A stretch of DNA of 64,000 nucleotides from Bacteroidota bacterium (GCA_041170435.1 JBEAYU010000045.1:7975-71974), one strand, 5' to 3'; shown: positions 2-64,000, counted from the first letter of the stretch. Numbers and translations: made by a program. Notes: generated by a model from the letters alone, not told the origin.

Positions 2-2578
2 CCGAAGGGACGTGTTGAACATCCCATCGTACGATTCTTGCGACAGTTCCATGCGCCCCTTGTCTATATCCTGATCGCCAGTGGCGTAGTGACGGCGATC
101 ATTGGAGGCATCACCGATACCTCCGTGATCTTTGGCGTGGTGCTGCTCAACGCAATCATCGGATTCGTGCAGGAGGGCAAGGCCATCTCGTCGTTGGCGC
201 GTCTGGCCAACTCTGTGGTAGGAACTGCCACGGTCGTGCGAGGGGGCGTGCGCATGCGCCTGCCGATGGAGGAGCTCGTACCGGGCGACCTCATCGTGCT
301 GGAAAGTGGCGATCGAGTGCCGGCGGATCTGCGCCTGGTGTGGGTGAAGGACCTGGCCATTGCCGAGTCAGCCCTGACCGGTGAAAGCGTCCCATCAGAG
401 AAGCAGTCGTCACCCGTTGATGCGGCGAGCGTACTTGCCGACCGTGCTTCGATGGCCTATGCCTCAACAGTGGTTACACGCGGCGCGGGAATGGGGCTGG
501 TGGTGTCCACGGGAAAGTCCACAGAGGTCGGCACGATCTCAACCTTGCTCAACGAAGCCCCCTCACTACAGACGCCGCTGACGCAGCAGATCGCACGATT
601 CAGCAATGTGCTGTTGGTGGCGATCCTGCTGCTTGCCGCCGGCACCTTTGCCGTGGGGGTCATGCGTGGCGAACGTCCGGTGGACATGGTCATGGCTGCT
701 GTTGCCCTGTCCGTTGGGGCAATTCCCGAGGGACTTCCCGCTGCGGTCACCATCATTCTGGCCATCGGCGTCAACCGCATGGCGCGTCGCAGAGCCATCG
801 TACGAAGTCTTCCGGTTGTGGAGACGCTTGGTTCGACCACGGTGATCTGCAGTGACAAGACGGGCACGCTGACGGAGAATCAGATGACCGTGGTAGCCAT
901 CACCACGGCATCGGCAGAGTACATCGTGCAGGGGACGGGATACCGACCTGAGGGAGACATCCTACGTCGAAGCAGCGCTGATGCATCTTCTCCCGTGCAC
1001 GTGGGGCATGATGTTGCGCTGCATGAGACGCTGCGCGCCGGCGTGCTGTGTTCCACAGCATCGGTCCGCCAAGTTGATGGCTATTGGCAGGCCTTGGGAG
1101 ACCCCACCGAAGCAGCCCTCGTGGTTGCCGGGATGAAGGCAGGGCTTCATCGTGACGTCGAGCAGGAGCTCATGCCGTTGGCCGACGTTGTGCCGTTCTC
1201 GAGCGATGCGCAGTACATGGCCACACTTCATCACACGCAACCATCGGGTTCGCGCATCTACATGAAGGGGGCTTTGGAGGCGCTGTTGCCTCGATGCACG
1301 AAGATGCTCACGCGGTCCGGATCCCATGAGCCCCTTGACATGCAGTCCATCACGGGTCACGTCGAAACCATGAGTGCCGAGGGCTTGCGCGTGCTGGCCT
1401 GTGCCATGAAGGACGTGGATGGACGCCTTGAGGAGATCACGTCCGACGTCCTGTCGGGTGACTTTGTACTGACGGGTATCGTGGGGATGGTCGATCCGCC
1501 TCGCCCCGAGGTACGCGCATCCATTGCCGAGTGTCATCGCGCCGGTGTGGGCGTGAAGATGATCACGGGAGATCATGCCATCACTGCCGTTGCCATTGCT
1601 CGTGATCTTGGCATCGTCGAAGTAAGTGGCCATCCCCGCGAATACGTCAAGACAGGACGTGATCTCGAACAGCTCAGTGACGAGCAGTTGGAAGATGCAG
1701 CCGAGCGCTACTCCGTCTTTGCGCGTGTGACGGCCGAGCAGAAGCTGCGTCTTGTACATGCACTTCAGCGAAGGGGGCATGTGGTTGCCATGACGGGTGA
1801 CGGAGTCAATGACGCTCCGGCACTTCGCACTGCAAACGTGGGCATTGCCATGGGGGGCACGGGCACGGACGTTGCCAAGGATGCGTCGGACATCGTGCTG
1901 ACGGATGACAACTTCACCACCATCGTTGCGGCGGTTGAGGAAGGTCGGACGGTGTTCGAAAACCTCATGAAGTTTATCGTGTGGACCATTCCAACCAATG
2001 CTGCCGAGGGCTTGGTGATCCTTGTGGCGGTGGCCCTGGGCGTTGCTTTGCCGATCCTTCCCATCCACATCTTGTGGATCAATATGACCACGGCGGTGAT
2101 CCTTGGGTTGCCACTGGCCTTTGAGCCAACGCCCCATGATGTGATGGAGCGACGTCCACGTCGCATGAGTGATCCGTTGTTTTCGCGGGACATTCTCATG
2201 CGGACCGGACTTGTCGTGCTGCTGATGCTTTCGTCCGGCTTCGGCATCTACTTCTGGGAGCTCAGTTCGGGAAGCACCCTTGTCGAAGCCCAGACCGCAG
2301 CCGCTGCCGTCTTCGTGGTCATTCAGACGTTCTACCTTTTCAACTGCCGCACGCTTGTGGGCCCGGCCAGACATCCGATCACGTCCAACATGACCGTGAT
2401 CTACGGTGCGGCTCTCATGGCCGTGCTTCAGCTGGCCTTCACATACGTGCCGTTCTTCAACGATGTGTTCCGCACCGCCCCCTTACCGCTCACCTCATGG
2501 ATGTACATCCTTGCCTGCGGCCTGGCCTCGTATGTGATCGTTTCGATCGAGAAGACGGTGAGGTGGCGATATAGCTAA
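2..2578 (+). CDS. P-type cation-transporting ATPase (type II, Ca2+/Mg2+-like); 5' end lies outside the window
   Basis: The frame is open from the window edge; the listed M at 38 is an internal TTG within PKGRVEHPIVRFLRQFHAPL. Motifs present: TGES, phosphorylation site CSDKTGTLT, hinge MTGDGVNDAPAL. Multiple TM helices. Confidence 0.9.
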   Translation, partial: PKGRVEHPIVRFLRQFHAPLVYILIASGVVTAIIGGITDTSVIFGVVLLNAIIGFVQEGKAISSLARLANSVVGTATVVRGGVRMRLPMEELVPGDLIVLESGDRVPADLRLVWVKDLAIAESALTGESVPSEKQSSPVDAASVLADRASMAYASTVVTRGAGMGLVVSTGKSTEVGTISTLLNEAPSLQTPLTQQIARFSNVLLVAILLLAAGTFAVGVMRGERPVDMVMAAVALSVGAIPEGLPAAVTIILAIGVNRMARRRAIVRSLPVVETLGSTTVICSDKTGTLTENQMTVVAITTASAEYIVQGTGYRPEGDILRRSSADASSPVHVGHDVALHETLRAGVLCSTASVRQVDGYWQALGDPTEAALVVAGMKAGLHRDVEQELMPLADVVPFSSDAQYMATLHHTQPSGSRIYMKGALEALLPRCTKMLTRSGSHEPLDMQSITGHVETMSAEGLRVLACAMKDVDGRLEEITSDVLSGDFVLTGIVGMVDPPRPEVRASIAECHRAGVGVKMITGDHAITAVAIARDLGIVEVSGHPREYVKTGRDLEQLSDEQLEDAAERYSVFARVTAEQKLRLVHALQRRGHVVAMTGDGVNDAPALRTANVGIAMGGTGTDVAKDASDIVLTDDNFTTIVAAVEEGRTVFENLMKFIVWTIPTNAAEGLVILVAVALGVALPILPIHILWINMTTAVILGLPLAFEPTPHDVMERRPRRMSDPLFSRDILMRTGLVVLLMLSSGFGIYFWELSSGSTLVEAQTAAAAVFVVIQTFYLFNCRTLVGPARHPITSNMTVIYGAALMAVLQLAFTYVPFFNDVFRTAPLPLTSWMYILACGLASYVIVSIEKTVRWRYS

Positions 2579-2638
2579 GAAGCCCTGACATATAGCTAAC
2601 TTGCATAACGTCACGTTTTTCTGTTCAGGAGCACGAAG

Positions 2639-2911
2639 ATGATAGTGATCAATATGCACGAAGCAAAGACCACATTGTCGCAGCTTGTTGAGATGGCCTT
2701 GCACGGGGAAACAGTCATCATTGCGCGACGCGGCGTGCCCGCGGTTCGCTTGGAGCCAGTATCTGATAGCGATTCACAGCGCCCTATCGGGCTTGGTGCT
2801 TCCATATCAGCAGCTGGCGATACCGGTCACGAACTACTGTCGGCCACGAATCCTGATGTGTATCAGGAAAGCACGACCGATCCACTTGACCGGCCTCGCC
2901 GCAAGGCATGA
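2639..2911 (+). CDS. Type II antitoxin, Phd/YefM-like
   Basis: N-terminus MIVINMHEAKTTLSQLVEMALHGETVIIARRGVPAVRLEPV is typical of prevent-host-death antitoxins. AGGAG lies 7-8 nt upstream. 4-nt ATGA overlap with the downstream PIN gene. Confidence 0.75.
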   Translation: MIVINMHEAKTTLSQLVEMALHGETVIIARRGVPAVRLEPVSDSDSQRPIGLGASISAAGDTGHELLSATNPDVYQESTTDPLDRPRRKA

Positions 2912-3303
2912 GTATGCGCATTCTGCTCGACACGCATGCTCTACTCTGGTACGATGCCGAACCGGACAGGCTCAGTGCGATCAGTCGCGAGATAATCCAA
3001 CAGAGAGACACGATCGTCCTCTGTTCCGCGGCATCGATCTATGAGCTATGGCAGAAGGCCATGAAACCGAAATCGCCAATCCGACCTGAACATGTCGAGT
3101 CAGTGCTTCGGCATATTCCCGTGTATGGCTTTACACTCCTTCCGATCGAAGTCAACCATGCAGCAGATGCGGCAGTTCTCAAATGGTCAAATCGTGACCC
3201 CTTTGATCGAATCATCGCAGCCCAAGCGATCGCCGAGAATTGTGCCATCATCACGTGCGATTCGGCATTCAAGAGCCTGAAGCAGGTGGAGATACTCTGG
3301 TGA
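2908..3303 (+). CDS. vapC: Type II toxin, VapC family (PIN domain)
   Basis: ILLDTHALLWY N-terminal acidic PIN signature, about 130 aa, overlaps the antitoxin stop. Its TGA stop lies inside the first heptamer of the downstream repeat array. Confidence 0.8.
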   Translation: MSMRILLDTHALLWYDAEPDRLSAISREIIQQRDTIVLCSAASIYELWQKAMKPKSPIRPEHVESVLRHIPVYGFTLLPIEVNHAADAAVLKWSNRDPFDRIIAAQAIAENCAIITCDSAFKSLKQVEILW

Positions 3304-3339
3304 CAGGTTACAGGTGACGGGTTACAGGTGACGGGTTAC
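3298..3339. repeat. Six tandem heptamers GGTKACR (alternating GGTTACA / GGTGACG)
   Basis: Direct reading: ggtgaca ggttaca ggtgacg ggttaca ggtgacg ggttaca. The vapC TGA stop (3301-3303) is embedded in unit 1. Confidence 0.95.
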
Positions 3340-3351
3340 AGGCGTGCAATC

Positions 3352-3776
3352 GTCATTCCCGCGAAAGCGGGAATCCATACATTATAGTAGGGGCGAGACG
3401 CAGTCTCGGCCGATGGTTTGCGCACAACGCCTGACGCGTCATGCTGCATAATTGCCCAGGGCTTTAGCCCTGGGAAAATAGGGGAGCCCCCTTCTACTAA
3501 TCATTTTCAAATCAATTCGATTCTATCTCTTATCCCAGGGCTTCAGCCATGGGAAAATAGAGCAAGAATGATTTGTTTGTGCTGGAATTGAAAGGGGGCT
3601 TGCCCCTCTTTCCCATGGCTGAAGCCATGGGAAGTTATGCGTTAAGATGGATCCCGGCCTGCGCCGGGATGACGGGGGTGCGCGATGAAGATGGATCCCG
3701 GCCTGCGCCGGGATGATGGTGATGGGTGCGGCCGAGAACAATGATGAATGCGGGCGAGACTGCGTCTCGCCCCTAC
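3352..3776. repeat. Repeat cluster A: at least 8 REP-like hairpin elements of several related families
   Basis: Hairpins read directly:
- 3352-3378: gtcattCCCGCGaaagCGCGGGaat-type (attcccgc gaaa gcgggaat)
- 3387-3411 and 3752-3776: GTAG-ggggcgagac...gtctcgcccc-CTAC
- 3455-3474, 3534-3553 and 3612-3631: cccaKggc-loop-gccMtggg
- 3647-3673 and 3691-3717: atggatCCCGGCctgcGCCGGGatga
No credible ORF. Confidence 0.9.
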
Positions 3777-4159
3777 TCCGACTCCGCCGTTGTTTCGTTC
3801 GCTTCATCCTCTGCGAATACGGAATCCAGATCGAAGCCCAGATTGCTCATCATACCTGGATGATGAAGTGGGTTGCGGCATCTTGATCGGTGAACGAGCC
3901 CGTGGAATCGGCTCCCATCATCGGCCTTGATGGCTGTGACGTATTCACAGCCTTCGACGATGAGGATCTTCTCGAAATCGGCTTCTACTCGAAGTTGGCC
4001 TAACTCCTGGGTAGTCCCGTTGTTCTTCTCGTCGGTAGCGTCCGACTTATCCAAAATGCTGATCAAAAGGATAACAATGAGGAATGCTGTGGCTCCAAGA
4101 AAGGAACCAGCAAAGCTCCAGAGTATAATTCTATTGCGTGCACGAAAGCGTCCGGTCAT
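3773..4159 (-). CDS. Hypothetical small membrane-anchored protein
   Basis: 128-aa ORF with one N-terminal TM helix (ILWSFAGSFLGATAFLIVILLISIL). No recognisable domain. Its 3' end abuts the GTAG hairpin at 3752-3776. Confidence 0.35.
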   Translation of the reverse strand: MTGRFRARNRIILWSFAGSFLGATAFLIVILLISILDKSDATDEKNNGTTQELGQLRVEADFEKILIVEGCEYVTAIKADDGSRFHGLVHRSRCRNPLHHPGMMSNLGFDLDSVFAEDEANETTAESE

Positions 4160-4239
4160 CGTGTTTCTGTTTGGTTTTGGGTGACAAGGTACGTTGATGC
4201 TTAAGTCATTACGTTGCGGATATCGAGGAGATTCAACGC

Positions 4240-4875
4240 CTATGATTTATGGCCTCGGTAGATCTTCTCGGCGTCGATGCGCTTGTGCACATTGAGCTTT
4301 GAGTAAATTCCTCGAACGTGCGAACGAACGGTGTCTAGACTCATAAACAGAATGTCAGCGATCTCTTTGTATTGTTTGCGGTCAGCCAAGAGTGCTAGGA
4401 CGTCGCGCTCTCGATCTGTCAATGTATCAAGGGATGTCGGACGTGGCAGGCTGGCCATGTAGTCCATAATGATCCGAGCGACGTTGCTTGTAAGTGGAGC
4501 GCCCCCTGAGTGAATCTCCTCAATTGCCTTTAGCAAACGCACTCTTGGCGTTGTTTTCAAGAGGTACCCACGTGCGCCTGCCAATATTGCTGACCGGATA
4601 TGATCATCGTCATCAAAATTGGTGAGCATGAGGATCTGGCCGGGTAGGTCTAACTCGCGAAGTCGCTCAATAGCTGTAATGCCCGATATTCCTGGAAGGC
4701 CTATATCGATGAGGAAGACATTGATAGCGTTAAGGTTGGGGCTGGCGAGAAGCTCTTCGCCGGTCTCAAAAACATCGAGGCACGAGAATCGTACGTCGGA
4801 GTTAAGCCGCTTGGATAGTCCCACTCTCAGAACAGGATCATCCTCGACGATTGCCAAACGAATAGTGTTAGACAT
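4240..4875 (-). CDS. Response regulator, NarL/FixJ (LuxR-type HTH) family
   Basis: REC domain (LAIVEDDP...FLIDIGLPGISG) plus C-terminal LuxR HTH (LTDRERDVLALLADRKQYKEIADILFMSLDTVRSHVRGIYSKL). Directly downstream of the kinase. Confidence 0.9.
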   Translation of the reverse strand: MSNTIRLAIVEDDPVLRVGLSKRLNSDVRFSCLDVFETGEELLASPNLNAINVFLIDIGLPGISGITAIERLRELDLPGQILMLTNFDDDDHIRSAILAGARGYLLKTTPRVRLLKAIEEIHSGGAPLTSNVARIIMDYMASLPRPTSLDTLTDRERDVLALLADRKQYKEIADILFMSLDTVRSHVRGIYSKLNVHKRIDAEKIYRGHKS

Positions 4876-4931
4876 ATGCGGTCTCGAATTGAATCAAATG
4901 GTATGCAATGAATGTTGCGTGGTTCTTCTGC

Positions 4932-7679
4932 TTACGATTTCGACTGGTTGCCCAACGGTACTACGAGAACAATTCTTGTACCTCTGTTTGATGATGATAG
5001 CTCTACGTGGCCACCGATCTCCATCATCCGTTCACGAATATTCAGCAGTCCAGATCCGCGGTGGGAGCGAGACGGATCGAAGCCAATGCCGTTATCGCGC
5101 AGCTCAACTCTAAGTGCATCATGAGTATCGCGGACGAACATTGATACTGAGCTCGCCTGACTGTGTCGGACAATGTTCGTTGCTATCTCTTTAGTGCTCA
5201 ACACGATGTTCCTCATTACTATGGCATCAATGAGATGTTCTTTCGATAGAAGCTCGTCATAGTTGAATGAGATGCCTTTATCAGCCATCAGATCGGCAAC
5301 CTTACCTTGTATATATCCGATCGTTGCCGCCAAGCGATCATCGTTGGACTTCATCACCCAGACAATTGAGCGAACAGAGTCAATGACCTGCTGTGCTGTG
5401 TCAGCAATAGAACGAATGGACTCATTGTCTTGATCTGCGGCAGCGTTCTCTGCCATGATCACGATCTTGGCTAGCCCCGTGCCGACATCGTCATGAAGAT
5501 CGCGGGCTATGCGAACGCGCTCCTCATGCACGTGATGCTCTGCTTCGTGTCTACGTTTATCGCGTTCGGTAGTTACTCTCGTGGCGACGAACCAAATTCC
5601 GGTTGCACTTGAGAGCAAGGTGGCCAGATAAAACCACCATGACTGCCAAAATCGTTTGGGTATTGTGAAGGTCGCTATAGCGGCATTACCGTATGAGCCA
5701 CCAACATATGAGGCCTGAACGATCAGGGTGTACGTTCCCGGTGCAAGTGTCGATAACACAATCTCTGGCGAGGTGGTCTCATATCGGACGGTGTCTGAAC
5801 CAATGAGCGTGCAGCGGTAGGTGACTGATAGCGCGCTTGAAAGGGCAATTGCGCGGGCAGTGTAACGTACTCCATCAGAGTTACTTGACGACGAATCAAG
5901 AACTACCGCTGGTGGAGGAGGATTGACAATGTCCCGCGATCTAAAGATGTTCATACCGTTGATCCCGCCGAAAGCAAATGACTGTGGACCGATTCGGTGG
6001 TGAGACCAGCTGTTGAATTCGAGACTTTGTGCCCCTTGAGATTGGGTGATTTGACGTCGCACTATATTGGAAGAAAGATCCCAGAGGATTATGCCTGCAT
6101 TGGTCGGAATAACAAGTTCTGAATCACCGACCTTATATGCCGCATAGGTGGTATTGTTCGGTAGGCCAGATCGAGAGTCGACAACACGCTCTCGCCCTGT
6201 TTGCAAGTCGATACAACGAACACCACCACCCCACGTCGAAACGTAGGCCCTGCCTTTATGCACTTCGATCGACCGAATGATGTCGATATTGGGTTTCTGG
6301 CATTGGGCATCTGGACACACGATCTTTGTCAGTGATCCACCGAGTTGTCCGCGGTACAAACCAAACTCCGTGCCGACTAGATAGTCGCCATCTTCGATTC
6401 TTGTAATCGCGCTAACAGAAATGCGTTTGTCGTTTGGAATGGGGCTCGCCGGTACAGGGAACCACTCGCTATTGAGGGAACGCAGGTTTACGCGAGCAAT
6501 ACCATCGTCAGTTCCAACCAGCACGTGGTCCTTTCCATCAGGGGCTATGCATGAAACAGCTTTACGAAGGGGGTGGCGCACTCTGTCATAGGTAAGCCAT
6601 TGTATAGACGATGACCCTTTACGCATGAAACCCAAACCGTTCTGTTCGGACCCAATCCATAGTCGACCATTACCATCGACATGCAGAGCCCGTGCTGCTC
6701 CTATGCGGACATAATCATTCGCCCACGATGCTACCATTCGACTGGTGCGAAGAACGGTATCTGTTTGGAGTATACCGGTTCGCAACCCGATATAAAGATT
6801 GCCAGCCCCATCCGAACAAAGCCCTCGAATGAAATTGTCTTGGATACGCTCAATACGACGCGTCGGCTGAAGAATGGGAAGGAGGTGGCAGTAGGGGTCA
6901 TAATGGCAAAGCCCGCCACCGTGCGTCCCTATCCACATTGTGCCGATGTTGTCTTCGTAGAGAAATCGGATGATGTTGCTACTGATAGACGCGGGGTCCA
7001 TGGGGTCGTGGTTGAGGCGCTGGGTTACGTGCATTGAATCGATGATGACAACACCTCCGCCATTCAGTCCGACCCACATACGTCCATGTGCATCCTCACA
7101 TAATGCCCAGACATCGTTGCATGGCAAACGTCGTGTGCTCTGCTCCCTCGTTGAATAGCGATATGTAGTGCGGGCGTGTGGGTCGGTAACAGATAAGCCA
7201 CTCGATACCGATGCTGTCCAGAGTCTTCCACTCCGATCTACGTACGCTACGTTCACATTGCCATTGTGGATCTGTTGTAAACTCGGCGAATTCAGTCGCC
7301 TAGGAGCAAAGACTGTCGTACGTCGCCACGTGTTGGTTAGCGCATCAAAGCGACATAGGCCATTCGGAGTACGCGCATAGACGAGGGAGTCAGCTCCGAG
7401 AAACAAATCGGAGACATTGCTGCCTGCTATCGATGTCGAGTCACCAGGACGGTGACGATAGACGACCATGTTACGCCCATCAAATCGTCCGAGTCCATCC
7501 TGCGTGCCGACCCAGATATAACCTCTGGCATCTTGCGCTATCTGATTCACGTATGACTGCGGCAGGCCTTCGCTAGAGCCAATTCGACGAAAACGATACT
7601 CCTGCCCACTGGAAAAGGCCGGTGCACACATTGCAAGTATAATCGCAACAACAGGAATCATCGCTAGAGTTATTGACAT
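4932..7679 (-). CDS. Sensor histidine kinase with periplasmic two-component-regulator propeller repeats and Y_Y_Y-like domain
   Basis: Signal peptide, repeated beta-propeller blades (GxxWVGT/WIGT motifs), one TM. HisKA_3 H-box ERVRIARDLHDDVG. HATPase_c (DNGIGFD...GSGLLNIRERM). Confidence 0.9.
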   Translation of the reverse strand: MSITLAMIPVVAIILAMCAPAFSSGQEYRFRRIGSSEGLPQSYVNQIAQDARGYIWVGTQDGLGRFDGRNMVVYRHRPGDSTSIAGSNVSDLFLGADSLVYARTPNGLCRFDALTNTWRRTTVFAPRRLNSPSLQQIHNGNVNVAYVDRSGRLWTASVSSGLSVTDPHARTTYRYSTREQSTRRLPCNDVWALCEDAHGRMWVGLNGGGVVIIDSMHVTQRLNHDPMDPASISSNIIRFLYEDNIGTMWIGTHGGGLCHYDPYCHLLPILQPTRRIERIQDNFIRGLCSDGAGNLYIGLRTGILQTDTVLRTSRMVASWANDYVRIGAARALHVDGNGRLWIGSEQNGLGFMRKGSSSIQWLTYDRVRHPLRKAVSCIAPDGKDHVLVGTDDGIARVNLRSLNSEWFPVPASPIPNDKRISVSAITRIEDGDYLVGTEFGLYRGQLGGSLTKIVCPDAQCQKPNIDIIRSIEVHKGRAYVSTWGGGVRCIDLQTGRERVVDSRSGLPNNTTYAAYKVGDSELVIPTNAGIILWDLSSNIVRRQITQSQGAQSLEFNSWSHHRIGPQSFAFGGINGMNIFRSRDIVNPPPPAVVLDSSSSNSDGVRYTARAIALSSALSVTYRCTLIGSDTVRYETTSPEIVLSTLAPGTYTLIVQASYVGGSYGNAAIATFTIPKRFWQSWWFYLATLLSSATGIWFVATRVTTERDKRRHEAEHHVHEERVRIARDLHDDVGTGLAKIVIMAENAAADQDNESIRSIADTAQQVIDSVRSIVWVMKSNDDRLAATIGYIQGKVADLMADKGISFNYDELLSKEHLIDAIVMRNIVLSTKEIATNIVRHSQASSVSMFVRDTHDALRVELRDNGIGFDPSRSHRGSGLLNIRERMMEIGGHVELSSSNRGTRIVLVVPLGNQSKS

Positions 7680-9656: not shown

Positions 9657-9739
9657 GTTGAACACTCAGCATTTGCAAGAATGATTGCGTACTCCGGCAA
9701 AAAACACCCTCATTTCAATTGTATCAAAGGAGCTTCACT

Positions 9740-55563: not shown

Positions 55564-56364
55564 TTAGCGAGGTGAAGAAATGCGCGCACCGATCGGACCA
55601 CGTAGTCCCGAGTAACCGGTAAGTTCCGCGTCGATCGAACCAATGGGGATCTTCGTGCTCACCTTGATGGGAATTCGGCGATCATCGTCGCTGAGCCATA
55701 GCAAGAGTTTCCCTTCGAACTTGAAGAGACTTCCGGACTTTATCACCGGCTCGACGACAACACAGCGGAACGTGCCTGCCTCCACTTCGATGGTCTGTCG
55801 GCCAAGGATCTTTATGGCCAGATCATGCGTCTCGCGATCGAAGAAATTCTGCAGGTAGATGACCTCCCCGCGTTTGTATTTCGACAGATCAAGAGCACGA
55901 ATGTAATAGAATGCCGAGACGATGTCGTGCACAAACACCGGTATAGGGAATGTTCCCTCGGTTGTAGAGGCGAGTTTCGTCACATGATCGAACGTTGCCG
56001 AGAAATCCTTTTGGAAGCCCCCTTCACGAATACTCTGTTCGAATTTCCACGGAAAGATCCCATCTACGTCAACCAATGTGCGGTATCGATCACGGACACG
56101 GTAGAGAAAGTCGAGGGACTTGAGGGAAGCGACCTCGAAGCGAATGTCGTAGCAGGGCCGTCCGGCGACCATGACAGGCTGCTTGCCAATGACGAAGTAA
56201 GCGGTACCAGCTTTGATGAACTTGTAACCCACGCTGTACTCGAGACGCTCGCCAAGGCCGAATGCTTCGTTGGCGATGTGCCGTAGCGGTGGCCGGTCAT
56301 CATCGGCACGCAACAGGAGGACGGTTGTTGCGAAGAGCAAAGCGATGTGAAGGGGGCGAAACAT
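55564..56364 (-). CDS. DUF3108 domain protein
   Basis: Start at Met 56364 (MFRPLHIALLFATTVLLL signal). GERLEYSVGYKFIKAGTAYF pattern. The listed ORF extension to 56571 runs antisense through the tRNA. Confidence 0.7.
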   Translation of the reverse strand: MFRPLHIALLFATTVLLLRADDDRPPLRHIANEAFGLGERLEYSVGYKFIKAGTAYFVIGKQPVMVAGRPCYDIRFEVASLKSLDFLYRVRDRYRTLVDVDGIFPWKFEQSIREGGFQKDFSATFDHVTKLASTTEGTFPIPVFVHDIVSAFYYIRALDLSKYKRGEVIYLQNFFDRETHDLAIKILGRQTIEVEAGTFRCVVVEPVIKSGSLFKFEGKLLLWLSDDDRRIPIKVSTKIPIGSIDAELTGYSGLRGPIGARISSPR

Positions 56365-56465
56365 ACCCCTGCCGAGACGTCCGGCAGAAAACCATCGTGT
56401 GAGAGATTGCCTGAATCGACGCGTCCGAACGTCGATACGATGCCGTGAGAAGGGAGAGAAGGAAG

Positions 56466-56538
<73 letters not shown>

Positions 56539-56554: not shown

Positions 56555-57310
56555 TCAGTTGAAAAGTCCAACGAAGATGCCGATCTGTGCGCTCAGGCCA
56601 CTGATGCCGATGGACGACGGGACATTGAGCGAGGATCCATGGAGGTTTGCCGTCCAGTCCGATGTCGACACAGGTACCGTATATGCTGTCTGGACACGAA
56701 GATTCAAGAATGGCGTCACGGCGTATTCGACCGAGAGTCGAGGCTGCAAGCACAGTGAGCTCTGCTCGAGAAACACCTGCGAGGTCATTGATGAATCGCT
56801 ATCCCAGTTAAACGGTCCACTCGTTGTAGATGACGTGATGGTCGAATAACCCCATGTGAGTCCTACACCGGGGATGATCGCGAGCTTTGCCGCCGGAACG
56901 ATGGCGTAATCGAAATGTAGCGATCGCGTTGAGATCGAATAATCAAGGCTTCTCTTCATGCCCCCTCCGGTGCTGATGAGGTCCTTCACCGATCCAACCG
57001 ATCCGGAGAGCCAGGAAAAGCCGAGTCGAAGATTTGGAACGACACCGATGGCAGCAAAGAACTCGGCTCCGGCAAGAATGAATGGAGACGATAACTCGTC
57101 GAGTTCCATCCTTGTGGCTTTTGCGTTCAGTGCCGTGACGTCTGGCGTGAAGAGCGAAAATGCGGGGCCGATGCCGATCGACGAATAGGCGACGGTCTCT
57201 TCCGGCAGTGGCTCTTCGTCGAAGTTCAGTTCATTGAGTCTGTCATCCTGCGCGGTGGCGCCGACAACGCTCAACAAGGCTATAAGAATGAGTGCAAATG
57301 GCCGAAACAT
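56555..57310 (-). CDS. Putative outer-membrane beta-barrel protein
   Basis: Start at Met 57310 (MFRPFALILIALLSVVGATAQ signal). Alternating hydrophobic beta-strand pattern. The C-terminus ends GLFN. Confidence 0.55.
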   Translation of the reverse strand: MFRPFALILIALLSVVGATAQDDRLNELNFDEEPLPEETVAYSSIGIGPAFSLFTPDVTALNAKATRMELDELSSPFILAGAEFFAAIGVVPNLRLGFSWLSGSVGSVKDLISTGGGMKRSLDYSISTRSLHFDYAIVPAAKLAIIPGVGLTWGYSTITSSTTSGPFNWDSDSSMTSQVFLEQSSLCLQPRLSVEYAVTPFLNLRVQTAYTVPVSTSDWTANLHGSSLNVPSSIGISGLSAQIGIFVGLFN

Positions 57311-57368: not shown

Positions 57369-58460
57369 ATGAGGATCGTTGCAGTCATCATGGCAGGTGG
57401 ACTTGGCATACGACTTTGGCCACGCAGTACGGAGCGGAAGCCGAAGCAGTTCGTTCATGCTATCGGTGAAGGGACGCTGATCCAGAATACTGTTGCCCGA
57501 TTGCAGCCTCTTGTGGATGCTGTGGACGTGTACGTTGTGACCACGGCTGACCTGCGGCATCACATTCACGATCAACTTCCAATGGTCGGTGCCGACAGGA
57601 TCATCAGCGAACCGTTCGGACGCAACACGGGCCCGGCAATCGCACTCTCTGCAATGACGGTCCAGGAACGTCTCGGTGACGATGTCGTGATGGTCATTCT
57701 CCCGAGTGACCATGTCATTAACAACATTCGTGAGTTCCAGGTCGTTGTCGACATGGCATGCACAGCTGCCGTTGCACTCGATTGCATCATGACCATTGGA
57801 GTGATGCCTACTCGTCCCGAAACAGGTTATGGATACATCCAGGTTGGCGAGCCTATCGAGAGTGAGAACCCGGTGCTCCGTGATCACGTCAAGCGCGTCT
57901 CGAGTTTCGCCGAGAAGCCCGACATGGCAACGGCCCAGCGGTTCATCGATGCAGGCGGCTTCGTGTGGAACTCCGGCATCGTCGTTGGCACCGCTCGAGC
58001 CATCACTCGCGCCGTCGACGAGTACATGCCGGATCACGCGCCGCTCTTTCATCAGTGGCAACGCCGCGGCCAAGGGGCTGATCATGACATCCTTCTCGAG
58101 TCCCTGTATCGGCAGATGCGCTCCGTCTCCTTCGACGTGGCAGTGCTTGAACGCGACCCAACGATTGGTGTTGTTGAGGGGGCGTTCGGTTGGAGTGACC
58201 TTGGTACGTGGGACGAGCTGTACCGCATGTCGCTGAAGGATGGGAAGAACAACGTCATTGAGGGCAATGTCACCTCTGTGCGGACGACAAATTGTCTGAT
58301 CTCTGCAGGATCGGGTCGACTCGTTGGCGCCGTGGACGTCGACAATCTCATCATCGTCGAAACTGATCAGTCCGTCTTGGTCTGTAGGCGCGGACAGGCA
58401 GAAAACGTGCGAGACCTCGTTGAGCATCTTCGACGTCGGCAAATGTCCAAGCATTTCTAG
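57369..58460 (+). CDS. Mannose-1-phosphate guanylyltransferase (nucleotidyltransferase domain type)
   Basis: VIMAGGLGIRLWPRSTERKPKQF, EPFGRNTGPAI, FAEKPD and WNSGI motifs. The 468-aa antisense ORF is a shadow. Confidence 0.88.
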   Translation: MRIVAVIMAGGLGIRLWPRSTERKPKQFVHAIGEGTLIQNTVARLQPLVDAVDVYVVTTADLRHHIHDQLPMVGADRIISEPFGRNTGPAIALSAMTVQERLGDDVVMVILPSDHVINNIREFQVVVDMACTAAVALDCIMTIGVMPTRPETGYGYIQVGEPIESENPVLRDHVKRVSSFAEKPDMATAQRFIDAGGFVWNSGIVVGTARAITRAVDEYMPDHAPLFHQWQRRGQGADHDILLESLYRQMRSVSFDVAVLERDPTIGVVEGAFGWSDLGTWDELYRMSLKDGKNNVIEGNVTSVRTTNCLISAGSGRLVGAVDVDNLIIVETDQSVLVCRRGQAENVRDLVEHLRRRQMSKHF

Positions 58461-58490
58461 CCCCCTGTCGTGTCGAGGTCGATCCACCAT

Positions 58491-59288
58491 ATGGTGCTGG
58501 TTGTTGTGGTTGTGTTGGCAACCGTGTCGGTGGTCGCTCAGCAGCAGCCCCTTGCCGACTCGTCGGCTCGGGTACTCCGTGACGTCCGGCGCCAGATCGA
58601 ACGTGATCGCCGCTCGTCCGATAGTCTTCGCTCGCTTTGGGAACGTCAATGGCGATTGAGCGACAGTTTGCGTGTCGAGTCAATGCTGTTTCGAATGCGA
58701 AGCGACTCTCTGCGCCGCGCCGTGACGCAATCCGAGCGGCGCGAACTGGAGATGCTTCAGGCATTGTCTGCGCCAGATACCGCACCGGCGCGTGACACTG
58801 TGGGGAGCGTCCCGGAACAATCGACTCCGTTCAATGCTGACTCAGTGCTTGACCAAGTGGAGCGCGTTGGCGCGGCGATCCGCCGCAATCGTTCGGGAAA
58901 GGTGAGCGCCGGCCGCACGTTAAGTGATACGATCACGCAGTTGGTGATGATCTCTGAGCCGGATACCGGGACGGCATCGTACTACGCAGAGGCCTTTCAT
59001 GGCCGCCGAACCTCAAGCGGTGAGATTTTCGACATGCACGATCGCACCTGCGCTCATAGGTGGTTGCCGTTCAACACTCATCTGCTGGTGACGAACCTAG
59101 CAAATGGACGCAAGGTTGTGGTGCGAGTCACCGATCGTGGTCCGTGGAAGAAAACTCGGATCATCGATTTATCGAAGAAAGCTGCCGTCGACCTCGACAT
59201 GATACGTGCCGGCACGGCACGAGTCAGCATTCAGGTGGTAAAGCAGCAGAGTGCTCCCACCGAGGCCGACGCAGACGGGGACCGGTGA
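58491..59288 (+). CDS. rlpA: Septal ring lytic transglycosylase RlpA family protein (DPBB domain)
   Basis: GTASYYAEAFHGRRTSSGEIFDMHDRTCAHRWLPFNTHLLVTNLANGRKVVVRVTDRGP. Signal peptide begins at the ATG at 58491 (alternative GTG at 58470). Confidence 0.85.
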   Translation: MVLVVVVVLATVSVVAQQQPLADSSARVLRDVRRQIERDRRSSDSLRSLWERQWRLSDSLRVESMLFRMRSDSLRRAVTQSERRELEMLQALSAPDTAPARDTVGSVPEQSTPFNADSVLDQVERVGAAIRRNRSGKVSAGRTLSDTITQLVMISEPDTGTASYYAEAFHGRRTSSGEIFDMHDRTCAHRWLPFNTHLLVTNLANGRKVVVRVTDRGPWKKTRIIDLSKKAAVDLDMIRAGTARVSIQVVKQQSAPTEADADGDR

Positions 59289-59332: not shown

Positions 59333-60424
59333 TCAGCAGAAGGGGATCTTGACTACTTCCGCGGGGAATGTTGTTCCCCGAGCCGCGATCTCGATCGTGG
59401 TACCCGGCGCAGACAATGCAGTGGGAACATATCCAAGTCCGATTCCCACGCCAAGCGACGGCGACTGATTTCCACTGGTCACGGTACCTACCGTCTGACC
59501 ATTGTCGGTGATTGCGTAGCCGTTGCGAGGGATGAGCTTTTCCGTGAGCATCTTGAATCCCACAAGCTTGCGCTGCGGTCCCTGTTCCTTCACGGCTGCG
59601 ATGACATCACTGCCATTGAAGGGGCCCTTGGCCAGCTTGGTGATCCAGCCAAGACCTGCCTCAATGGGGTTGGTCTCATCGGTAATGTCATTTCCGTAGA
59701 GGCAGTATCCCTTTTCGAGGCGCAACGTATCGCGGGCTCCCAGTCCGATCCACGCGATGCCACATTCACGACCGGCCTCAAACAGGGCCCCCACCACAGT
59801 CGCGGCCACGGACTCATCACCGGTAAAGTAGAGTTCGAAACCGATCTCTCCCGTGTAACCAGTGCGCGAGAGGATCATCGGGACTCCGGCCAGTGTACCC
59901 TCGGCAAAGCCGTAATAGGGAATCACGGATAGGTCGGTCGTGGTGAGCTTCTGAAGCGTTTCGATGCTCTTTGGGCCTTGCACAGCAAGCAGGCTGTAGT
60001 CATCACTGCGATCGACCAATGTCACGTTCGTGACGTCTGCCGCCTGCTGACTGATCCAGGCCCAGTCTTTTTCGATGTTCGCTCCGTTGACGACCAGCAT
60101 GTATGAGTTCTCCGCCAGCATGTATACGAGCAGATCGTCAACCAGCCCACCATTCGGCCGGGGCAGGGCCGAATACTGAGCCTTACCCGGTGTAAGCTTC
60201 GAAGCGTCATTGACGGTGATCTTCTGGATCAGTGCCAGTGAATCAGGCCCTGACACGAAGAACTCGCCCATGTGCGACACATCGAAGATGCCCACGGCAT
60301 TGCGCACGAGCTTGTGCTCGGCAATGATCCCCGTCGGGTACTGAATGGGCATTTCGAATCCTGCAAACGATACCATTTTGGCACCGGCGGCAAGGTGGAG
60401 CGCATGGAACTTCGTGGTCTTCAT
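59333..60424 (-). CDS. gcvT: Glycine cleavage system aminomethyltransferase
   Basis: FAGFEMPIQY, FDVSHMGEF, GYTGEIGFEL and ARDTLRLE motifs. 363 aa. Confidence 0.95.
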   Translation of the reverse strand: MKTTKFHALHLAAGAKMVSFAGFEMPIQYPTGIIAEHKLVRNAVGIFDVSHMGEFFVSGPDSLALIQKITVNDASKLTPGKAQYSALPRPNGGLVDDLLVYMLAENSYMLVVNGANIEKDWAWISQQAADVTNVTLVDRSDDYSLLAVQGPKSIETLQKLTTTDLSVIPYYGFAEGTLAGVPMILSRTGYTGEIGFELYFTGDESVAATVVGALFEAGRECGIAWIGLGARDTLRLEKGYCLYGNDITDETNPIEAGLGWITKLAKGPFNGSDVIAAVKEQGPQRKLVGFKMLTEKLIPRNGYAITDNGQTVGTVTSGNQSPSLGVGIGLGYVPTALSAPGTTIEIAARGTTFPAEVVKIPFC

Positions 60425-60484: not shown

Positions 60485-61804
60485 ATGACCTCGCGTCGAT
60501 CGATGTTACGCTCGTTAGCGGCACTAGGGCCGACCGCACTGTTCGCCTCCGAGTCGCTTGCTGCGGTAACGCAGTGGCTGCCGACGGCATCACCTCATGT
60601 CCCCGCATCCGTGGTCGCTGAGGACGAGGATTTCTGGTCTACCGTGCAACAGGCATTCGATGTTGACAGGTCGATCATCAACCTCAATAACGGCGGAGTG
60701 TCCCCGTCGCCCCGTACCGTTCAGGCTGCCTTTCGGCGGTATACGGACCAGGCAAACAACATGCCCGCCTATGAGATGTGGCGCCACCAAGAGCCGCAGG
60801 TCGAGTCCATTCGCGAAGGCTTGGCAGACATTTTCGCCGTCAGCCCCGAAGAGATCGCCATAACACGCAATGCCAGCGAGGCCCTCGAAACACTCCAACT
60901 CGGAATGCCTCTTGAACGGGGCGATGAAGTATTGACCACGACGCATGATTATCCGAGGATGCTCACGACGTGGGAGCAGCGAGCCCGCCGCGATGGGATT
61001 GTGATCAAGAAGGTGGGTTTCCCGACGCCGCTGAAGCGACGCCAAGATTTTGTCGATGCGATCGAAGCCGGTATCACGGACCGCACAAAGGTCATCCACA
61101 TCTCCCACGTCGTCTTTCTCACCGGTCAGATCTTGCCTGTTCGTGACGTATGCCGCCTGGCAGCTCGCCGGAACATCCGTTGTATCGTCGATGGAGCGCA
61201 TTCGTTTGCCCACTTTCCGTTCACCCAGAAGGATCTCGAGTGCGAGTACTTCGGGACGTCCTTGCACAAGTGGTTCCTTGGTCCGATCGGCACAGGGATG
61301 CTGTACGTCAAGAAGGAGCGCATCGCCGATGTGTGGCCTCTGATGGCGGCACCCAAAGACATGGATGCCAACATCAGGAAGTTTGAGGAGATTGGAACGC
61401 ATCCGGCGGCCATGCATAACGCACTGATAGAATCGATCGCATTCCATCGTGCCATGGGGGTGGAACGCAAGGCCGCCCGTCTGCGCCATCTTCATACCGT
61501 ATGGACCGATCAGCTGGGGAAGTTCGACAACGTCCGCTTTCTCACCGATATCGCGGACGACGAGAATCAATGCGGACTTCGCTTGGTGCACATCGAAGGG
61601 ACGGATCCCGGCAAGGTGTCTTCCTACCTTCTCGAAAAGCATAGGATCTTTACCGTATCGATCGGTCACGAAGATTTCAAGGGGCTTCGGGTTGCCCCTT
61701 CAGTGTACACAACGGTCGACGAGATGATGCGGTTTTCCAAGGCCATGAGCATGATCGCCCGTGGCGAGGCCGGATCTGCCGTGTCAGTTGATGTGAAGGG
61801 CTGA
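60485..61804 (+). CDS. Class V aminotransferase-fold PLP enzyme with Tat-type signal
   Basis: Twin-arginine N-terminus TSRRSMLRSLAALG. Class V fold with the SLHKW Lys motif. Confidence 0.8.
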   Translation: MTSRRSMLRSLAALGPTALFASESLAAVTQWLPTASPHVPASVVAEDEDFWSTVQQAFDVDRSIINLNNGGVSPSPRTVQAAFRRYTDQANNMPAYEMWRHQEPQVESIREGLADIFAVSPEEIAITRNASEALETLQLGMPLERGDEVLTTTHDYPRMLTTWEQRARRDGIVIKKVGFPTPLKRRQDFVDAIEAGITDRTKVIHISHVVFLTGQILPVRDVCRLAARRNIRCIVDGAHSFAHFPFTQKDLECEYFGTSLHKWFLGPIGTGMLYVKKERIADVWPLMAAPKDMDANIRKFEEIGTHPAAMHNALIESIAFHRAMGVERKAARLRHLHTVWTDQLGKFDNVRFLTDIADDENQCGLRLVHIEGTDPGKVSSYLLEKHRIFTVSIGHEDFKGLRVAPSVYTTVDEMMRFSKAMSMIARGEAGSAVSVDVKG

Positions 61805-62260
61805 CAATCCGCGGGTCGTATCGCCAATGTCCGCAAACGGTGGCGGGCTGTTGGGGCGGAAAACTTCGTCAAGCTCATCCTCAAGCGTGCGCGTCTCGTG
61901 AAACCGGTCCTGGTCGCGCACGAAGCTCGCCATGATCTCCAGGTGCCATGGTGGTAGCAGTGTTACGTGCACGGCCTCGTCCCACTCGAACGAGCGAAGG
62001 TGAGCCCCCTGACTGCGAAGGGTGCGCCGAAGATCCTCCAGTACCTCCCCGATGAAGTCTGGAATGCTCGCCTCCTCATTCACGGAAAGCAGAATGTGCA
62101 CATGGTCCTCGCGGGTGTGCACTGCAGCCGAGCGCAGTTTGTGCCGTTGTGCCGTCCGGTCGACCGTCTGCTCTAAGAGGTGGTGAATGCCGCGGGGAAT
62201 CATGAGTCCCTCTCCGGGAATGATGATCAGGTGAAGCCCCAGCCCTTTATATGCTTGCAT
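61784..62260 (-). CDS. IS200/IS605 Y1-transposase-like (RAYT-like) protein with Phe at the expected catalytic Tyr position
   Basis: HUH motif in EDHVHILLSV. The C-terminal helix reads SFVRDQDRFHE where the family has YIxNQxxHH. Start at Met 62260 is assumed. 21-nt convergent overlap with the aminotransferase. Confidence 0.5.
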   Translation of the reverse strand: MQAYKGLGLHLIIIPGEGLMIPRGIHHLLEQTVDRTAQRHKLRSAAVHTREDHVHILLSVNEEASIPDFIGEVLEDLRRTLRSQGAHLRSFEWDEAVHVTLLPPWHLEIMASFVRDQDRFHETRTLEDELDEVFRPNSPPPFADIGDTTRGLSALHIN

Positions 62261-62455
62261 TGTGGTGCCCAAGTTGAACGTGAGAGAAAGTTGGTTTGCA
62301 TCCACTTCGTGTTTCTTCGGTGGCAGAACGTGACATGAGCCGTCAAGCCGGGCCAACATCCGTGACATCTGGGCGTCGTAAATTGCCGCTCCGAGGACGC
62401 CCAGTCGGTGCGCACGGGTAGTTCCACTTCACAACAGCGATAGAGGCCCCTTACT

Positions 62456-62782: not shown

Positions 62783-63192
62783 ACATGACCAGGATCGCCA
62801 TCGCTCTCGTGTTTCTCTCAACGACGTTTTCATGTACGATGAATGCCCAGCAGGTTAAGGACGTCGACGTCAAAGCTGCCAAGGCCATGATCGACAAGGG
62901 TGGCGTGACCATTCTTGATGTTCGCACTCCCGCTGAATACCAGGCCGGCCATATCGCTGAATCGGTCTTGGCCAACTACAACGATCCGGCATTCGAGACC
63001 ATGATCGCCAAGATCGATAAGAACAAGCCTGTTCTGGTGTATTGCGCAGCCGGTGGCCGCAGTTCCAGAGCAGCCAAGCTGATGTCCGAGAAGGGCTGGA
63101 AGAACGTCAGCAACATGCTTGGCGGTATGGGAGCATGGGGTAAGGCCGGCTATGTGGTGGAAATTTACGAAGAGGGTAAGGGTAAGAAGTAA
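62779..63192 (+). CDS. Rhodanese-like domain protein with signal peptide
   Basis: Signal peptide. ILDVRTPAEYQAGHI and active-site loop CAAGGRS. ATGA overlap with the preceding paralogue. Confidence 0.85.
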   Translation: MNMTRIAIALVFLSTTFSCTMNAQQVKDVDVKAAKAMIDKGGVTILDVRTPAEYQAGHIAESVLANYNDPAFETMIAKIDKNKPVLVYCAAGGRSSRAAKLMSEKGWKNVSNMLGGMGAWGKAGYVVEIYEEGKGKK

Positions 63193-63201
63193 CCAGCATC
63201 A

Positions 63202-64000
63202 ATGTTAACGCTAACACTGAAGCCGCGTGAGGAGAGACGCCTTCGCGACGGTCACCTGTGGGCCTATCGTGATGAGCTGGTGCATGCGCCCGATGCTGTG
63301 CCTGGCGAGCTCGTGCGCCTTGTGGCCCATGACGGATCGTCGCTCGGATCTGGCCTGTACAATCCGCTTTCGAAGATTGCCGTGCGCCTGTTAGGGGGCG
63401 AGGTAGAGACACTTGACACGCATTTTTTCGTTCGTCGTTTCCAGACGTCCCTGCAGCTACGACGTCGGATGCTCCCGAACGAAGAGTCCTATCGTCTCGT
63501 CTTCGGCGAGGCGGATTTGCTCAGCGGGCTGATCGTTGATGTATACGGACAGTACGCAGCGCTGCAAATGCTCTCAGCAGGGATGGATCGTGCCAAGCCC
63601 CGTGTCATCGAAGCGCTCCTGCAGGTGTTGCCAGATCTCAAGGGTATCATTGAGAAGAACACAGCCCAGACCCGCAAGAAGGAGGGTCTCGAACTTGTCG
63701 ATGCCGTCGTCTGGGGTGAGATTCCTGAGCGGGTGCATGTTCGAGAGAACGGTCTTGCCTTGGAGATCGATCTTCTTGGCGGCCAGAAGACAGGTTACTT
63801 TCTTGATCAAAAGATCAACCGCCGCGTGGTGGGGTCACTCTCGGCCGGCCGTAGCGTCTTGGATTGCTTTTGCAATGTCGGCGGCTTTGCTCTCAACGCC
63901 GCTGCCGGGGGAGCTCGACTGGCGCTTGGGGTTGATTCTTCGGTGACGGCCATCGAGGGGGCTCGACGGCATGCCGAGATCAATGGCCTCGAGAACTGCA
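63202..64000 (+). CDS. rlmI: Class I SAM-dependent rRNA methyltransferase (RlmI-like, PUA plus MTase); 3' end outside the window
   Basis: Not in the ORF track because it has no stop in the window. I translated frame 1 from the ATG at 63202: MLTLTLKPREERRLRDGHLWAYRDE...GQKTGYFLDQ...VLDCFCNVGGFAL. Confidence 0.85.
   Translation, partial: MLTLTLKPREERRLRDGHLWAYRDELVHAPDAVPGELVRLVAHDGSSLGSGLYNPLSKIAVRLLGGEVETLDTHFFVRRFQTSLQLRRRMLPNEESYRLVFGEADLLSGLIVDVYGQYAALQMLSAGMDRAKPRVIEALLQVLPDLKGIIEKNTAQTRKKEGLELVDAVVWGEIPERVHVRENGLALEIDLLGGQKTGYFLDQKINRRVVGSLSAGRSVLDCFCNVGGFALNAAAGGARLALGVDSSVTAIEGARRHAEINGLENC

Follow-up and report, generated by a model that had tools for sequence, protein, structure and literature searches.

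What makes one short word recur about once per kilobase of bacterial DNA, in either orientation and inside as well as between genes? The question is posed by a 64,000-nt stretch from a Bacteroidota bacterium (GCA_041170435.1, JBEAYU010000045.1:7975–71974; the window hereafter), in which we counted the heptamer AGGGGGC and its reverse complement GCCCCCT on both strands. Exact counting gives 30 and 23 copies, the same total of 53 that a preliminary description had reached by eye, and all but two of its positions stand (26907 and 35283 each move by one base, to 26906 and 35282). Its estimate of 10–15 copies by chance was too high: at a guanine–cytosine (GC) content of 55.6%, for which the mid-50s had been assumed, an order-1 Markov model predicts 5.1 copies and an order-3 model 7.5, so that the Markov-corrected z-score, proposed there as a test, is 16.6 and far from unremarkable. 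No 7-mer of the window outnumbers AGGGGGC, though one other ties with it, and none has a higher z-score; it is also the most over-represented under maximal-order Markov models. Its flanks are specific: of 81 runs of at least five G or C, 53 (65%) have the form A-G5-C, matching the two thirds of about 80 first described, and every other combination of flanks occurs at most six times (CG5C 4, TG5C 2, AG5T 4 and AG5A 2, as originally counted). A further 5′ A precedes 26 of the 53 copies, again the half that had been claimed, and a 3′ T follows 25.

The excess is not a product of the encoded proteins. We called 65 coding sequences (CDS) with a codon log-odds model, covering 93.7% of the window and leaving 6.3% non-coding. 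Within CDS lie 43 AGGGGGC copies (23 sense, 20 antisense), spread over five of the six frames and bearing out the earlier view that no single peptide motif is involved and that all phases and both strands are used. Shuffling synonymous codons within each gene, with protein and codon usage kept, yields 6.5 ± 2.4 copies (maximum 16 in 1,000 shuffles), and shuffling the order of whole codons yields 5.6 ± 2.3 (maximum 15 in 1,000). The codon-pair-preserving Euler shuffle, on which the preliminary description had staked its claim, yields 12.7 ± 3.2 (maximum 24 in 300) and does not reproduce the count; it is deliberately over-conservative, because GGG-GGC pairs made by the motif itself are retained. 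Ranked by synonymous shuffle, AGGGGGC comes first among all 7-mers and AAGGGGC second (40 observed versus 7.9 expected), so the suspicion that AAGGGGC is also frequent was well placed. Ten AGGGGGC copies lie between genes or at a stop or start codon, in spite of the small non-coding share of the DNA, and checking against the CDS calls upheld all seven gene junctions first listed. The enrichment acts at the level of DNA and is neither a peptide nor a codon effect.

As a definition, the heptamer AGGGGGC proved too narrow. We combined the window with related genomes of its clade into a pool of 442 kb and set this against an outgroup of 238 kb of Kapaibacteria DNA of the same GC content. In the pool 72% of GGGGC pentamers have an A two bases upstream, compared with 26% in the outgroup; the base between them is mostly G (307 cases) or A (206), less often T (121) or C (78). 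Per kilobase, AGGGGGC is about 21 times and AAGGGGC about 28 times denser in the clade than in the outgroup, ATGGGGC and ACGGGGC only about 2.7 times, and the remaining one-mismatch neighbours are unchanged (0.5–1.6 times), none of them depleted. The signal is pure gain, because GGGGC lacking the A at −2 is equally dense in both groups. The word is ARGGGGC (R, A or G), often with a T after it: T stands at +1 in 56% of copies (0.44 bit), there is a weak preference for G at −2 and −3, and flanks are otherwise unrelated. Counted in both orientations, ARGGGGC has 94 copies in the window, or 1.47 per kb.

By the relatives of the threonyl-tRNA synthetase (ThrRS) that thrS encodes, the window belongs to Candidatus Kapaibacterium (Kapabacteria, Bacteroidota/Chlorobi group); its best matches are 92–98% identical in protein, and the surrounding DNA only ~72–82% identical. 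Motif counts in 80 loci around these thrS relatives (numbered L001 onward) give 307 copies of AGGGGGC versus 37 expected in the 442 kb of the clade, and 8 versus 8.7 expected in the 238 kb of other Kapaibacteria at 51–60% GC; ARGGGGC density is 1.16 per kb in the clade and 0.05 per kb in the outgroup, a ~23-fold difference. In a neighbour-joining ThrRS tree the motif-enriched genomes form one monophyletic clade, within which a single sub-branch (L018, L019 and L040) has completely lost the motif (0.03 per kb). Enrichment follows lineage and not GC content, and the proposal of a host genome signature gains in substance, the motif being clade-wide and absent from sister lineages of the same GC. 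Position 2 varies between lineages: the fraction of the AG form is 0.30–0.32 in L006, L008, L010 and L068 and in L024 and L025, versus 0.73–0.75 in L015–L017 (Fisher P = 1e-6). ARGGGGC is thus a real clade-specific word, independent of orientation and reading frame, that has evolved dialects and been lost once. No comparably strong alternative word, as another dialect would be, was found in the motif-negative Kapaibacteria loci examined. Farther afield, TTTAAAA is over-represented across the whole of L026, from a distant Bacteroidota metagenome-assembled genome (MAG) of 43% GC (203 observed versus 50 expected), as is CAATTCC in L034 (31 versus 9.5) and L038 (26 versus 8.3); these may be other lineage-specific words or repeats.

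Copies are held at orthologous sites, a check that the preliminary description had recommended. AGGGGGC is identical at the aligned position in 52.6% of clade comparisons and AAGGGGC in 35.2%, compared with 14.6–14.8% for composition-matched permuted 7-mers and 17.6% for all 7-mers; AGGGGGC is thus retained ~3.5 times more than composition-matched words across ~20–28% nucleotide divergence. Against the motif-attenuated and outgroup genomes, 0 of 62 aligned copies match exactly. Where a copy differs within the clade, the change is in many cases an A↔G toggle at position 2 that keeps the remainder of the word. The thrS gene illustrates both behaviours: the site at 26906 reads exactly AGGGGGC in 18 clade genomes, with three synonymous positions fixed, and shows free synonymous variation in ~60 others (for example TGGCGGT, CGGAGGT and AGGTGGA), while the site at 27672 reads AGGGGGC in 13 clade genomes, with two synonymous positions fixed, and AAGGGGC in L012, L013 and L022. 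Contigs of the same species were recovered by exact-protein match; L083 and L085 are 100% identical to the window, hence uninformative, and L081, L082 and L086 are 97–98% identical. Gains and losses of the motif are both seen between these strains. The copy at 17413 arose in the window strain by 2–3 clustered synonymous changes inside a local cluster of single-nucleotide polymorphisms, a single anecdote that is compatible with a short imported tract.

That the same sites recur in MAGs of many independent projects and assemblers, with reading frames intact, bears on whether the word could be an artefact or by-product, such as a bias in codon pairs, a commonly used peptide, a repeat scattered through the genome, terminator hairpins or sequencing error in G runs. 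Two observations lend this some colour: 23% of the GGG codons in the window fall in the ANGGGGC family, and the few AAGGGGC copies of a distant Ignavibacteria locus, L074 (5 versus 0.3 expected), are ordinary terminator hairpins, on which account we rejected L074 as a further case. Codon, codon-pair and peptide effects are excluded by the shuffles. Flanks unrelated save for the T at +1, and the location of 83 of the 94 copies inside genes, do not describe a repeat of the repetitive extragenic palindrome (REP) or miniature inverted-repeat element type (separate REP-like hairpins exist in the window), and inverted pairs are rare. Because the shuffles and the recurrence of sites across genomes contradict it, we consider an artefactual origin refuted and hardly conceivable.

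Occupancy shows how strongly the word is drawn in. At 421 positions in the window the protein permits the motif by synonymous change, and 82 of these (19.5%) are filled, versus 13.5 expected from codon usage; in favourable frames the filled share reaches 53–60%, with 12 of 20 at [K/E/Q]-G-A, 17 of 32 at A-P-[S/L/F/Y] and 11 of 19 at K-G-[L/P/Q]. Of the 94 copies, 11 fall in the 6.3% of non-coding DNA, an approximately twofold higher density at junctions and outside genes. Synonymous positions are pulled to the motif where the protein tolerates it, and non-coding DNA and gene ends are preferred. The ARGGGGC/ANGGGGC family occupies all six frames, and every one of the seven motif positions is a synonymous third codon position in some frame, so the force must recognize the whole word; since all motif bases are driven, neither a repair bias at single bases nor codon bias nor a peptide motif can account for the word. 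The signature of very-short-patch repair (Vsr/Dcm-like) is likewise absent, as the force bears on all seven positions and no T-variant neighbour is scarcer than in the outgroup; a whole-word force together with undepleted neighbours excludes a Vsr-like bias in the repair of single mismatches. What maintains and multiplies ARGGGGC is a force whose target is the double-stranded motif as a whole rather than proteins, codons, transcripts or replication strands; it fills up to half of the permissive positions and holds sites across species. A neutral, context-dependent mutation bias, in which a lineage-specific quirk of polymerase or repair generates A-R-GGGG-C without function, would share the lineage specificity and strand symmetry of the pattern, its light touch on protein sequences and the lack of visible extra constraint within species. 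It would, however, have to be specific for 7 bp and affect each position of the word; the neighbours that it should drain are not depleted, copies are retained 3.5 times more than composition-matched words, and their spacing is under-dispersed rather than clustered. We regard such a bias as very improbable.

Orientation and spacing speak to a second kind of explanation, a cis-acting chromosomal site under ordinary selection that is bound or processed by an abundant lineage-specific DNA protein, such as a nucleoid-organizing or loading factor, or that serves as an unskewed Chi-like self signal to AddAB/RecBCD-type nucleases; it would be needed about once per kb in either orientation. Known Chi, KOPS and SRS motifs are strongly strand-skewed. 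Over 30 syntenic loci, all sharing a positive GC skew of ~+0.03, ANGGGGC lies on the G-rich strand in a ratio of 431:387 (52.7%) and AGGGGGC in 55.9% of cases, and in the window the ANGGGGC orientations are 63:65. Since 52.7–55.9% is what that GC skew predicts, there is no Chi- or KOPS-like polarity, and the strand split agrees with the earlier judgement that the word resembles uptake signals or HIP1 more than Chi or KOPS. Chi (GCTGGTGG in E. coli, AGCGG in B. subtilis, GCGCGTG in L. lactis) is short, G-rich, specific to a group of species, over-represented and self-marking for recombinational repair, as ARGGGGC would be; it differs in being active in one orientation and co-oriented with replication. 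KOPS, SRS and AIMS, the polar octamers that orient FtsK or SpoIIIE, are likewise G-rich chromosome-wide words, yet they are defined by an extreme polarity that switches at dif, and none is seen for ARGGGGC. Without polarity ARGGGGC is neither Chi nor KOPS.

Spacing in the window is more even than random placement (coefficient of variation (CV) 0.85, P = 0.067), and 15 of 15 loci fall below their simulated CV (combined z −4.9), these loci being non-independent through shared conserved sites. Such evenness would suit a cis-acting site, as would the whole-motif constraint, the conservation, the A↔G toggle at position 2 and the general likeness of a short G-rich word to known Chi sites; conservation of the same kind was taken by Xu et al. 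to show selection on HIP1 and a link to the nucleoid (PMC5861425). Counting against such a site are the absence of co-orientation with the replication strand beyond GC skew, the lack of extra conservation between 97%-identical strains (a comparison of low power) and the fact that no candidate protein can be named; a cis-acting site is, in our assessment, rather unlikely.

The preliminary description had also drawn on a low-GC island (3773–11297, 48.6% GC) in which the heptamer is scarce. The copies there are indeed few, but this is mostly an effect of composition: relative to its own composition the island is enriched 7.3-fold, versus ~10-fold elsewhere. Being nearly as enriched as the rest, it argues little for a host signature, and its supposed depletion supports one only weakly. 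Pooled putative accessory segments (the island, a methyltransferase insertion, two toxin–antitoxin pairs, a variable cassette and a Y1 transposase-like gene) are enriched 5.6-fold, versus 10.2-fold in the rest (P = 0.049). The island encodes a two-component system, with a 915-aa Reg_prop β-propeller histidine kinase and a LuxR-type response regulator, together with a Bflower_3-domain protein and three proteins lacking a Pfam match; a reading of the stretch at 4–11 kb as a restriction–modification (R-M) module was rejected on that account.

The only methyltransferase module of the window lies at 19.6–20.9 kb, in a lower-GC 1.4-kb insertion (19595–20960) that encodes an N6/N4 DNA methyltransferase (19636–20448, PF01555) and an overlapping 172-aa open reading frame (ORF) without Pfam match. 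The insertion is probably a small R-M module. It contains no copy of ARGGGGC, and it is present in the same-species L081 and absent from L003, L004 and L053. As these relatives are equally motif-rich, the enzyme of this strain-variable insertion cannot explain the motif and was rejected as its cause. The wider proposal, that ARGGGGC is the target of a conserved, possibly orphan, methyltransferase of the clade and that its abundance is kept by methylation-linked processes (repair or conversion directed by methylation, or the discrimination of incoming DNA by its methylation, of which RAATTY in Campylobacter is an example), draws on several parallels. A degenerate, asymmetric 7-mer with one R/N position resembles, in general terms, the sites of methyltransferases or Type IIG/III enzymes, and the phylogenetic on/off pattern with its dialects fits the gain, loss or respecification of one enzyme. 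The abundance of HIP1, moreover, tracks orphan methyltransferases (PMC4390886), and methylated HIP1 raises transformation (bioRxiv 10.1101/2024.09.10.611283). HIP1 (GCGATCGC) of cyanobacteria resembles ARGGGGC in that it is short and hyper-abundant both within ORFs and between them, is conserved across genomes more than coding requires (52.6% versus 14.6% for our word), has no role in peptide, RNA or expression, and is clade-wide with exceptional lineages that lack the word or carry variants. For HIP1, selection has been argued from such conservation (PMC5861425); its function, long obscure, has since been linked to transformation or recombination, and stimulation of natural transformation was recently reported (bioRxiv 10.1101/2024.09.10.611283). 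HIP1 is, unlike ARGGGGC, palindromic over its 8 bp, and two orphan methyltransferases have their targets within it; ARGGGGC lacks such symmetry (AGGGGGC reads GCCCCCT on the opposite strand), has no known cognate methyltransferase and, not being palindromic, is not HIP1. The RAATTY methyl-mark of Campylobacter jejuni is a short, degenerate, abundant word that tags self DNA for transformation, as ARGGGGC would do, and it too differs in being palindromic and dependent on methylation by CtsM. With the sole methyltransferase of the window missing from motif-rich relatives, and Vsr-type repair of single positions excluded, a methylation-based explanation seems to us improbable.

The closest known systems are the DNA uptake sequence (DUS) of Neisseriaceae (GCCGTCTGAA core, ComP receptor) and the uptake signal sequence (USS) of Pasteurellaceae (AAGTGCGGT core). 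ARGGGGC shares with them a density of about one copy per kb, far above chance, independence of orientation, presence in all reading frames and enrichment outside genes; it also resembles them in being confined to a clade and split into lineage dialects, in holding its orthologous sites, in a spacing more even than random and perhaps in a somewhat lower density in accessory DNA (PMC3630211, PMC2397512). Dialects of DUS between lineages are known (PMC3630211). By analogy, we tentatively favour ARGGGGC as a DUS/USS-like tag of self DNA in uptake or recombination, conceding that the chances are short of even. A lineage-specific DNA-binding component of the uptake or transformation machinery, or of the recombination machinery immediately downstream, would prefer fragments that bear the word; alleles bearing it would be imported and recombined more often, and this preference would drive its accumulation (molecular drive) and favour exchange with kin. 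The AG and AA dialects and the loss in one sub-branch would then reflect change or loss of the recognition protein. Every Chlorobi strain examined, and nearly all Bacteroidetes, have ComEC-domain proteins (PMC6299819). It is possible, if somewhat more doubtful, that the Kapaibacteria clade has a sequence-specific recognition of self DNA, most likely a sequence bias in uptake or transformation. This would be the first example beyond Proteobacteria, and one found in an uncultured lineage of the Bacteroidota/Chlorobi group.

Several points weigh against a role of ARGGGGC in uptake. The word is short, 7–8 bp with one degenerate position and ~13 bits, compared with 9–12 bp for USS and DUS; its information is limited to seven positions and the weak T at +1, and a core of 9–12 bp is missing. 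Only five motif pairs lie within 60 bp of each other, and a single one, 61679/61694, is a clear convergent inverted pair, inside a CDS, so that the terminator-forming inverted pairs typical of DUS and USS are essentially absent. Strains 97% identical to the window keep 30 of 36 motif copies, versus 83% of all coding 7-mers, a comparison of low power. Protein sequences have hardly been reshaped, as the expectation from synonymous shuffling, with the real protein order kept (6.5), is near that from shuffled order (5.6). No competence, pilus, receptor or recombination gene lies within the window, nor did the other loci examined contain competence or recombination genes. We know of no natural transformation in Kapaibacteria, which are uncultured. 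Above all, the positive features are equally expected under any selection on the whole motif and therefore do not single out uptake. Enrichment is also ~10-fold rather than at least 100-fold, and the organisms are uncultured and of another phylum (Bacteroidota/Chlorobi group); on account of its length and its missing terminator pairs, ARGGGGC does not rank as a member of the DUS/USS family.

Our search of the literature for the motif words, for Kapabacteria and for uptake sequences in Bacteroidetes found, among the papers searched, no mention of this motif in bacteria. To our knowledge, few genome-wide iterated words are understood (DUS, USS, Chi and KOPS), and HIP1 is still debated after 30 years. 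ARGGGGC is a hyper-abundant iterated genomic word that would work like DUS/USS and HIP1, in a phylum-level group where none had been described before, and it offers a clean new example in a little-studied, uncultured lineage. Its sharp phylogenetic on/off boundary, its lineage dialects and its one degenerate position make it tractable, so that comparative genomics alone could nominate the recognition protein; if the word is such a tag, the dialects and the sub-branch loss should make that protein findable by profiling motif-positive against motif-negative genomes. Sequence-biased transformation, if real, would be evidence of kin-biased gene exchange in environmental bacteria of the Bacteroidota group. 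Whatever its role, ARGGGGC provides a strong signature for the binning and taxonomy of these MAGs and may serve as a marker to separate native from recently acquired DNA.

The copies of AGGGGGC in the window (strand given by the orientation of the word) are distributed as follows. On the plus strand, sense copies within CDS lie at 241–247 (R-G-G), 1266–1272 (K-G-A), 1772–1778 (AGG GGG C), 16659–16665 (E-G-A), 17413–17419 (G-G-G; TGGCGGT in L081, L004 and L053), 21387–21393 (conserved in 5 of 5 aligned relatives), 22301–22307 (conserved in 3 of 3), 26906–26912 (thrS; xxA GGG GGC, Gly-Gly), 39403–39409 (pfk), 43179–43185, 52611–52617, 53744–53750 and 58177–58183. Also on this strand, a copy at 42109–42115 stands at the 3′ end of a permease CDS, 12 nt before the next ATG (42121), and another at 56351–56357 in the 5′ part or leader of a DUF3108 gene whose CDS start is uncertain. 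Antisense copies on the same strand are at 12701–12707, 24434–24440, 24613–24619 (AAGGGGC in L003 and L004), 25129–25135 (conserved in 5 of 6 relatives), 35282–35288, 37111–37117 (toggling to AAGGGGC in L004, L009, L011 and L053), 44730–44736 and 49284–49290. Minus-strand sense copies occupy 4501–4507 (response regulator, low-GC island), 12634–12640 (E-G-G), 32351–32357 (AGG GGG CTT, with CGN Arg codons in relatives outside the clade), 37780–37786 (G-G-G), 46365–46371 (rpoN), 47235–47241, 56017–56023, 56960–56966 and 62004–62010 (Y1 transposase-like gene); those antisense to CDS are at 557–563 (A-P-S), 2477–2483, 8140–8146 (low-GC island), 14879–14885 (conserved in L004), 15475–15481, 17814–17820, 27672–27678 (thrS; GCC CCC T, Ala-Pro), 28437–28443 (lost in L081 and L082, which have GCCCCCC), 42235–42241 and 43609–43615. 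Stop codons are overlapped at 16268–16274 (+; TAA of the CDS at 15717–16268), 29436–29442 (+; CDS 29434–30153, minus strand), 32672–32678 (+; phoU-like CDS 32678–33385, minus strand) and 58460–58466 (−; TAG of a mannose-1-phosphate guanylyltransferase-like CDS). Copies between genes are at 3486–3492 (−), 3593–3599 (+, within a small hairpin), 11533–11539 (−), 16883–16889 (−, between a CMD/AhpD-like stop and a radical-SAM ATG), 34161–34167 (+, between pstB-like and pstA-like CDS) and 63393–63399 (+); at 63956–63962 (+), by the window end, no CDS was called.

AAGGGGC is sense to CDS on the plus strand at 15045–15051, 19442–19448 and 19502–19508 (both K-G-L), 22650–22656, 23274–23280 (polymorphic, AAAGGGC in L081), 25847–25853 (ParE toxin gene), 27981–27987 and 28008–28014 (both thrS), 43672–43678, 52363–52369, 58072–58078 and 61679–61685, and on the minus strand at 6031–6037 (histidine kinase, low-GC island), 13188–13194, 25345–25351, 29693–29699, 30075–30081, 31959–31965, 36838–36844 and 47722–47728. 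It is antisense on the plus strand at 12777–12783, 30426–30432, 45447–45453 (rpoN), 46961–46967, 55264–55270 and 59619–59625 (gcvT), and on the minus strand at 55–61, 1330–1336, 15835–15841, 18803–18809, 19153–19159, 21077–21083, 22168–22174, 22794–22800, 39850–39856, 40516–40522, 40827–40833, 50512–50518, 58547–58553 and 61694–61700, the last forming with 61679–61685 the closest inverted pair. One intergenic copy lies at 62446–62452 (−).

Around these copies are ordinary housekeeping genes, including P-type ATPases, thrS, the pst operon, pfk, rpoN and gcvT, beside the two-component system of the island, the methyltransferase module and two type II toxin–antitoxin pairs. The latter comprise Phd/YefM with a PIN toxin (2639–3303) and Phd/YefM with a ParE toxin (25377–26095), the ParE pair standing directly upstream of thrS and being conserved in L081 and L082. 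Rfam and tRNA scans of the window found no motif copy in a known RNA, the sole RNA being a tRNA-Met (CAT) at 56465–56538 (−) between two minus-strand CDS; because the longest-ORF start of the DUF3108 gene, 56571, overlaps this tRNA, it must be wrong.

Other repeats share the window with the word. Tandem arrays of a 7-bp unit at 23351–23417 and 23843–23986 (others are at 3299–3342 and 16517–16549) flank a 137-aa PF05635 gene (23S rRNA IVP/Avd-like four-helix; 23422–23835, minus strand), one array being GAGTGAC × 9.6 and the other, in inverse orientation, CGTCACT × 20.6. In the 97%-identical L081 (6115–7861) a 398-aa Fic-domain gene and a 31-nt hairpin repeat fill the PF05635 slot, which has the look of a cassette site with variable content between heptamer arrays and is reminiscent of the STRR repeats of cyanobacteria. 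A 31-nt unit, ATGGATCCCCGCTTTCGCGGGGATGACGAGG, is repeated 5.9 times in tandem at 16329–16512 and has an 8-bp stem and 4-nt loop; repeats of this kind also lie at 3355, 3651, 3695, 11479, 16284 and 21799. Twelve REP-like palindromes, ATYCCSGC-N4-GCSGGRAT, are present, mostly intergenic, versus 0.03 expected by chance; L001 has related copies upstream of thrS, and L081 has them next to the Fic gene. A 194-aa gene at 61784–62368 (−) has a weak match to Y1_Tnp, the IS200-like HUH transposase family (E = 1e-6), and is single-copy and conserved in the same place in L083 and L084; it may be a domesticated transposase of the RAYT type, tied to the REP-like hairpins.

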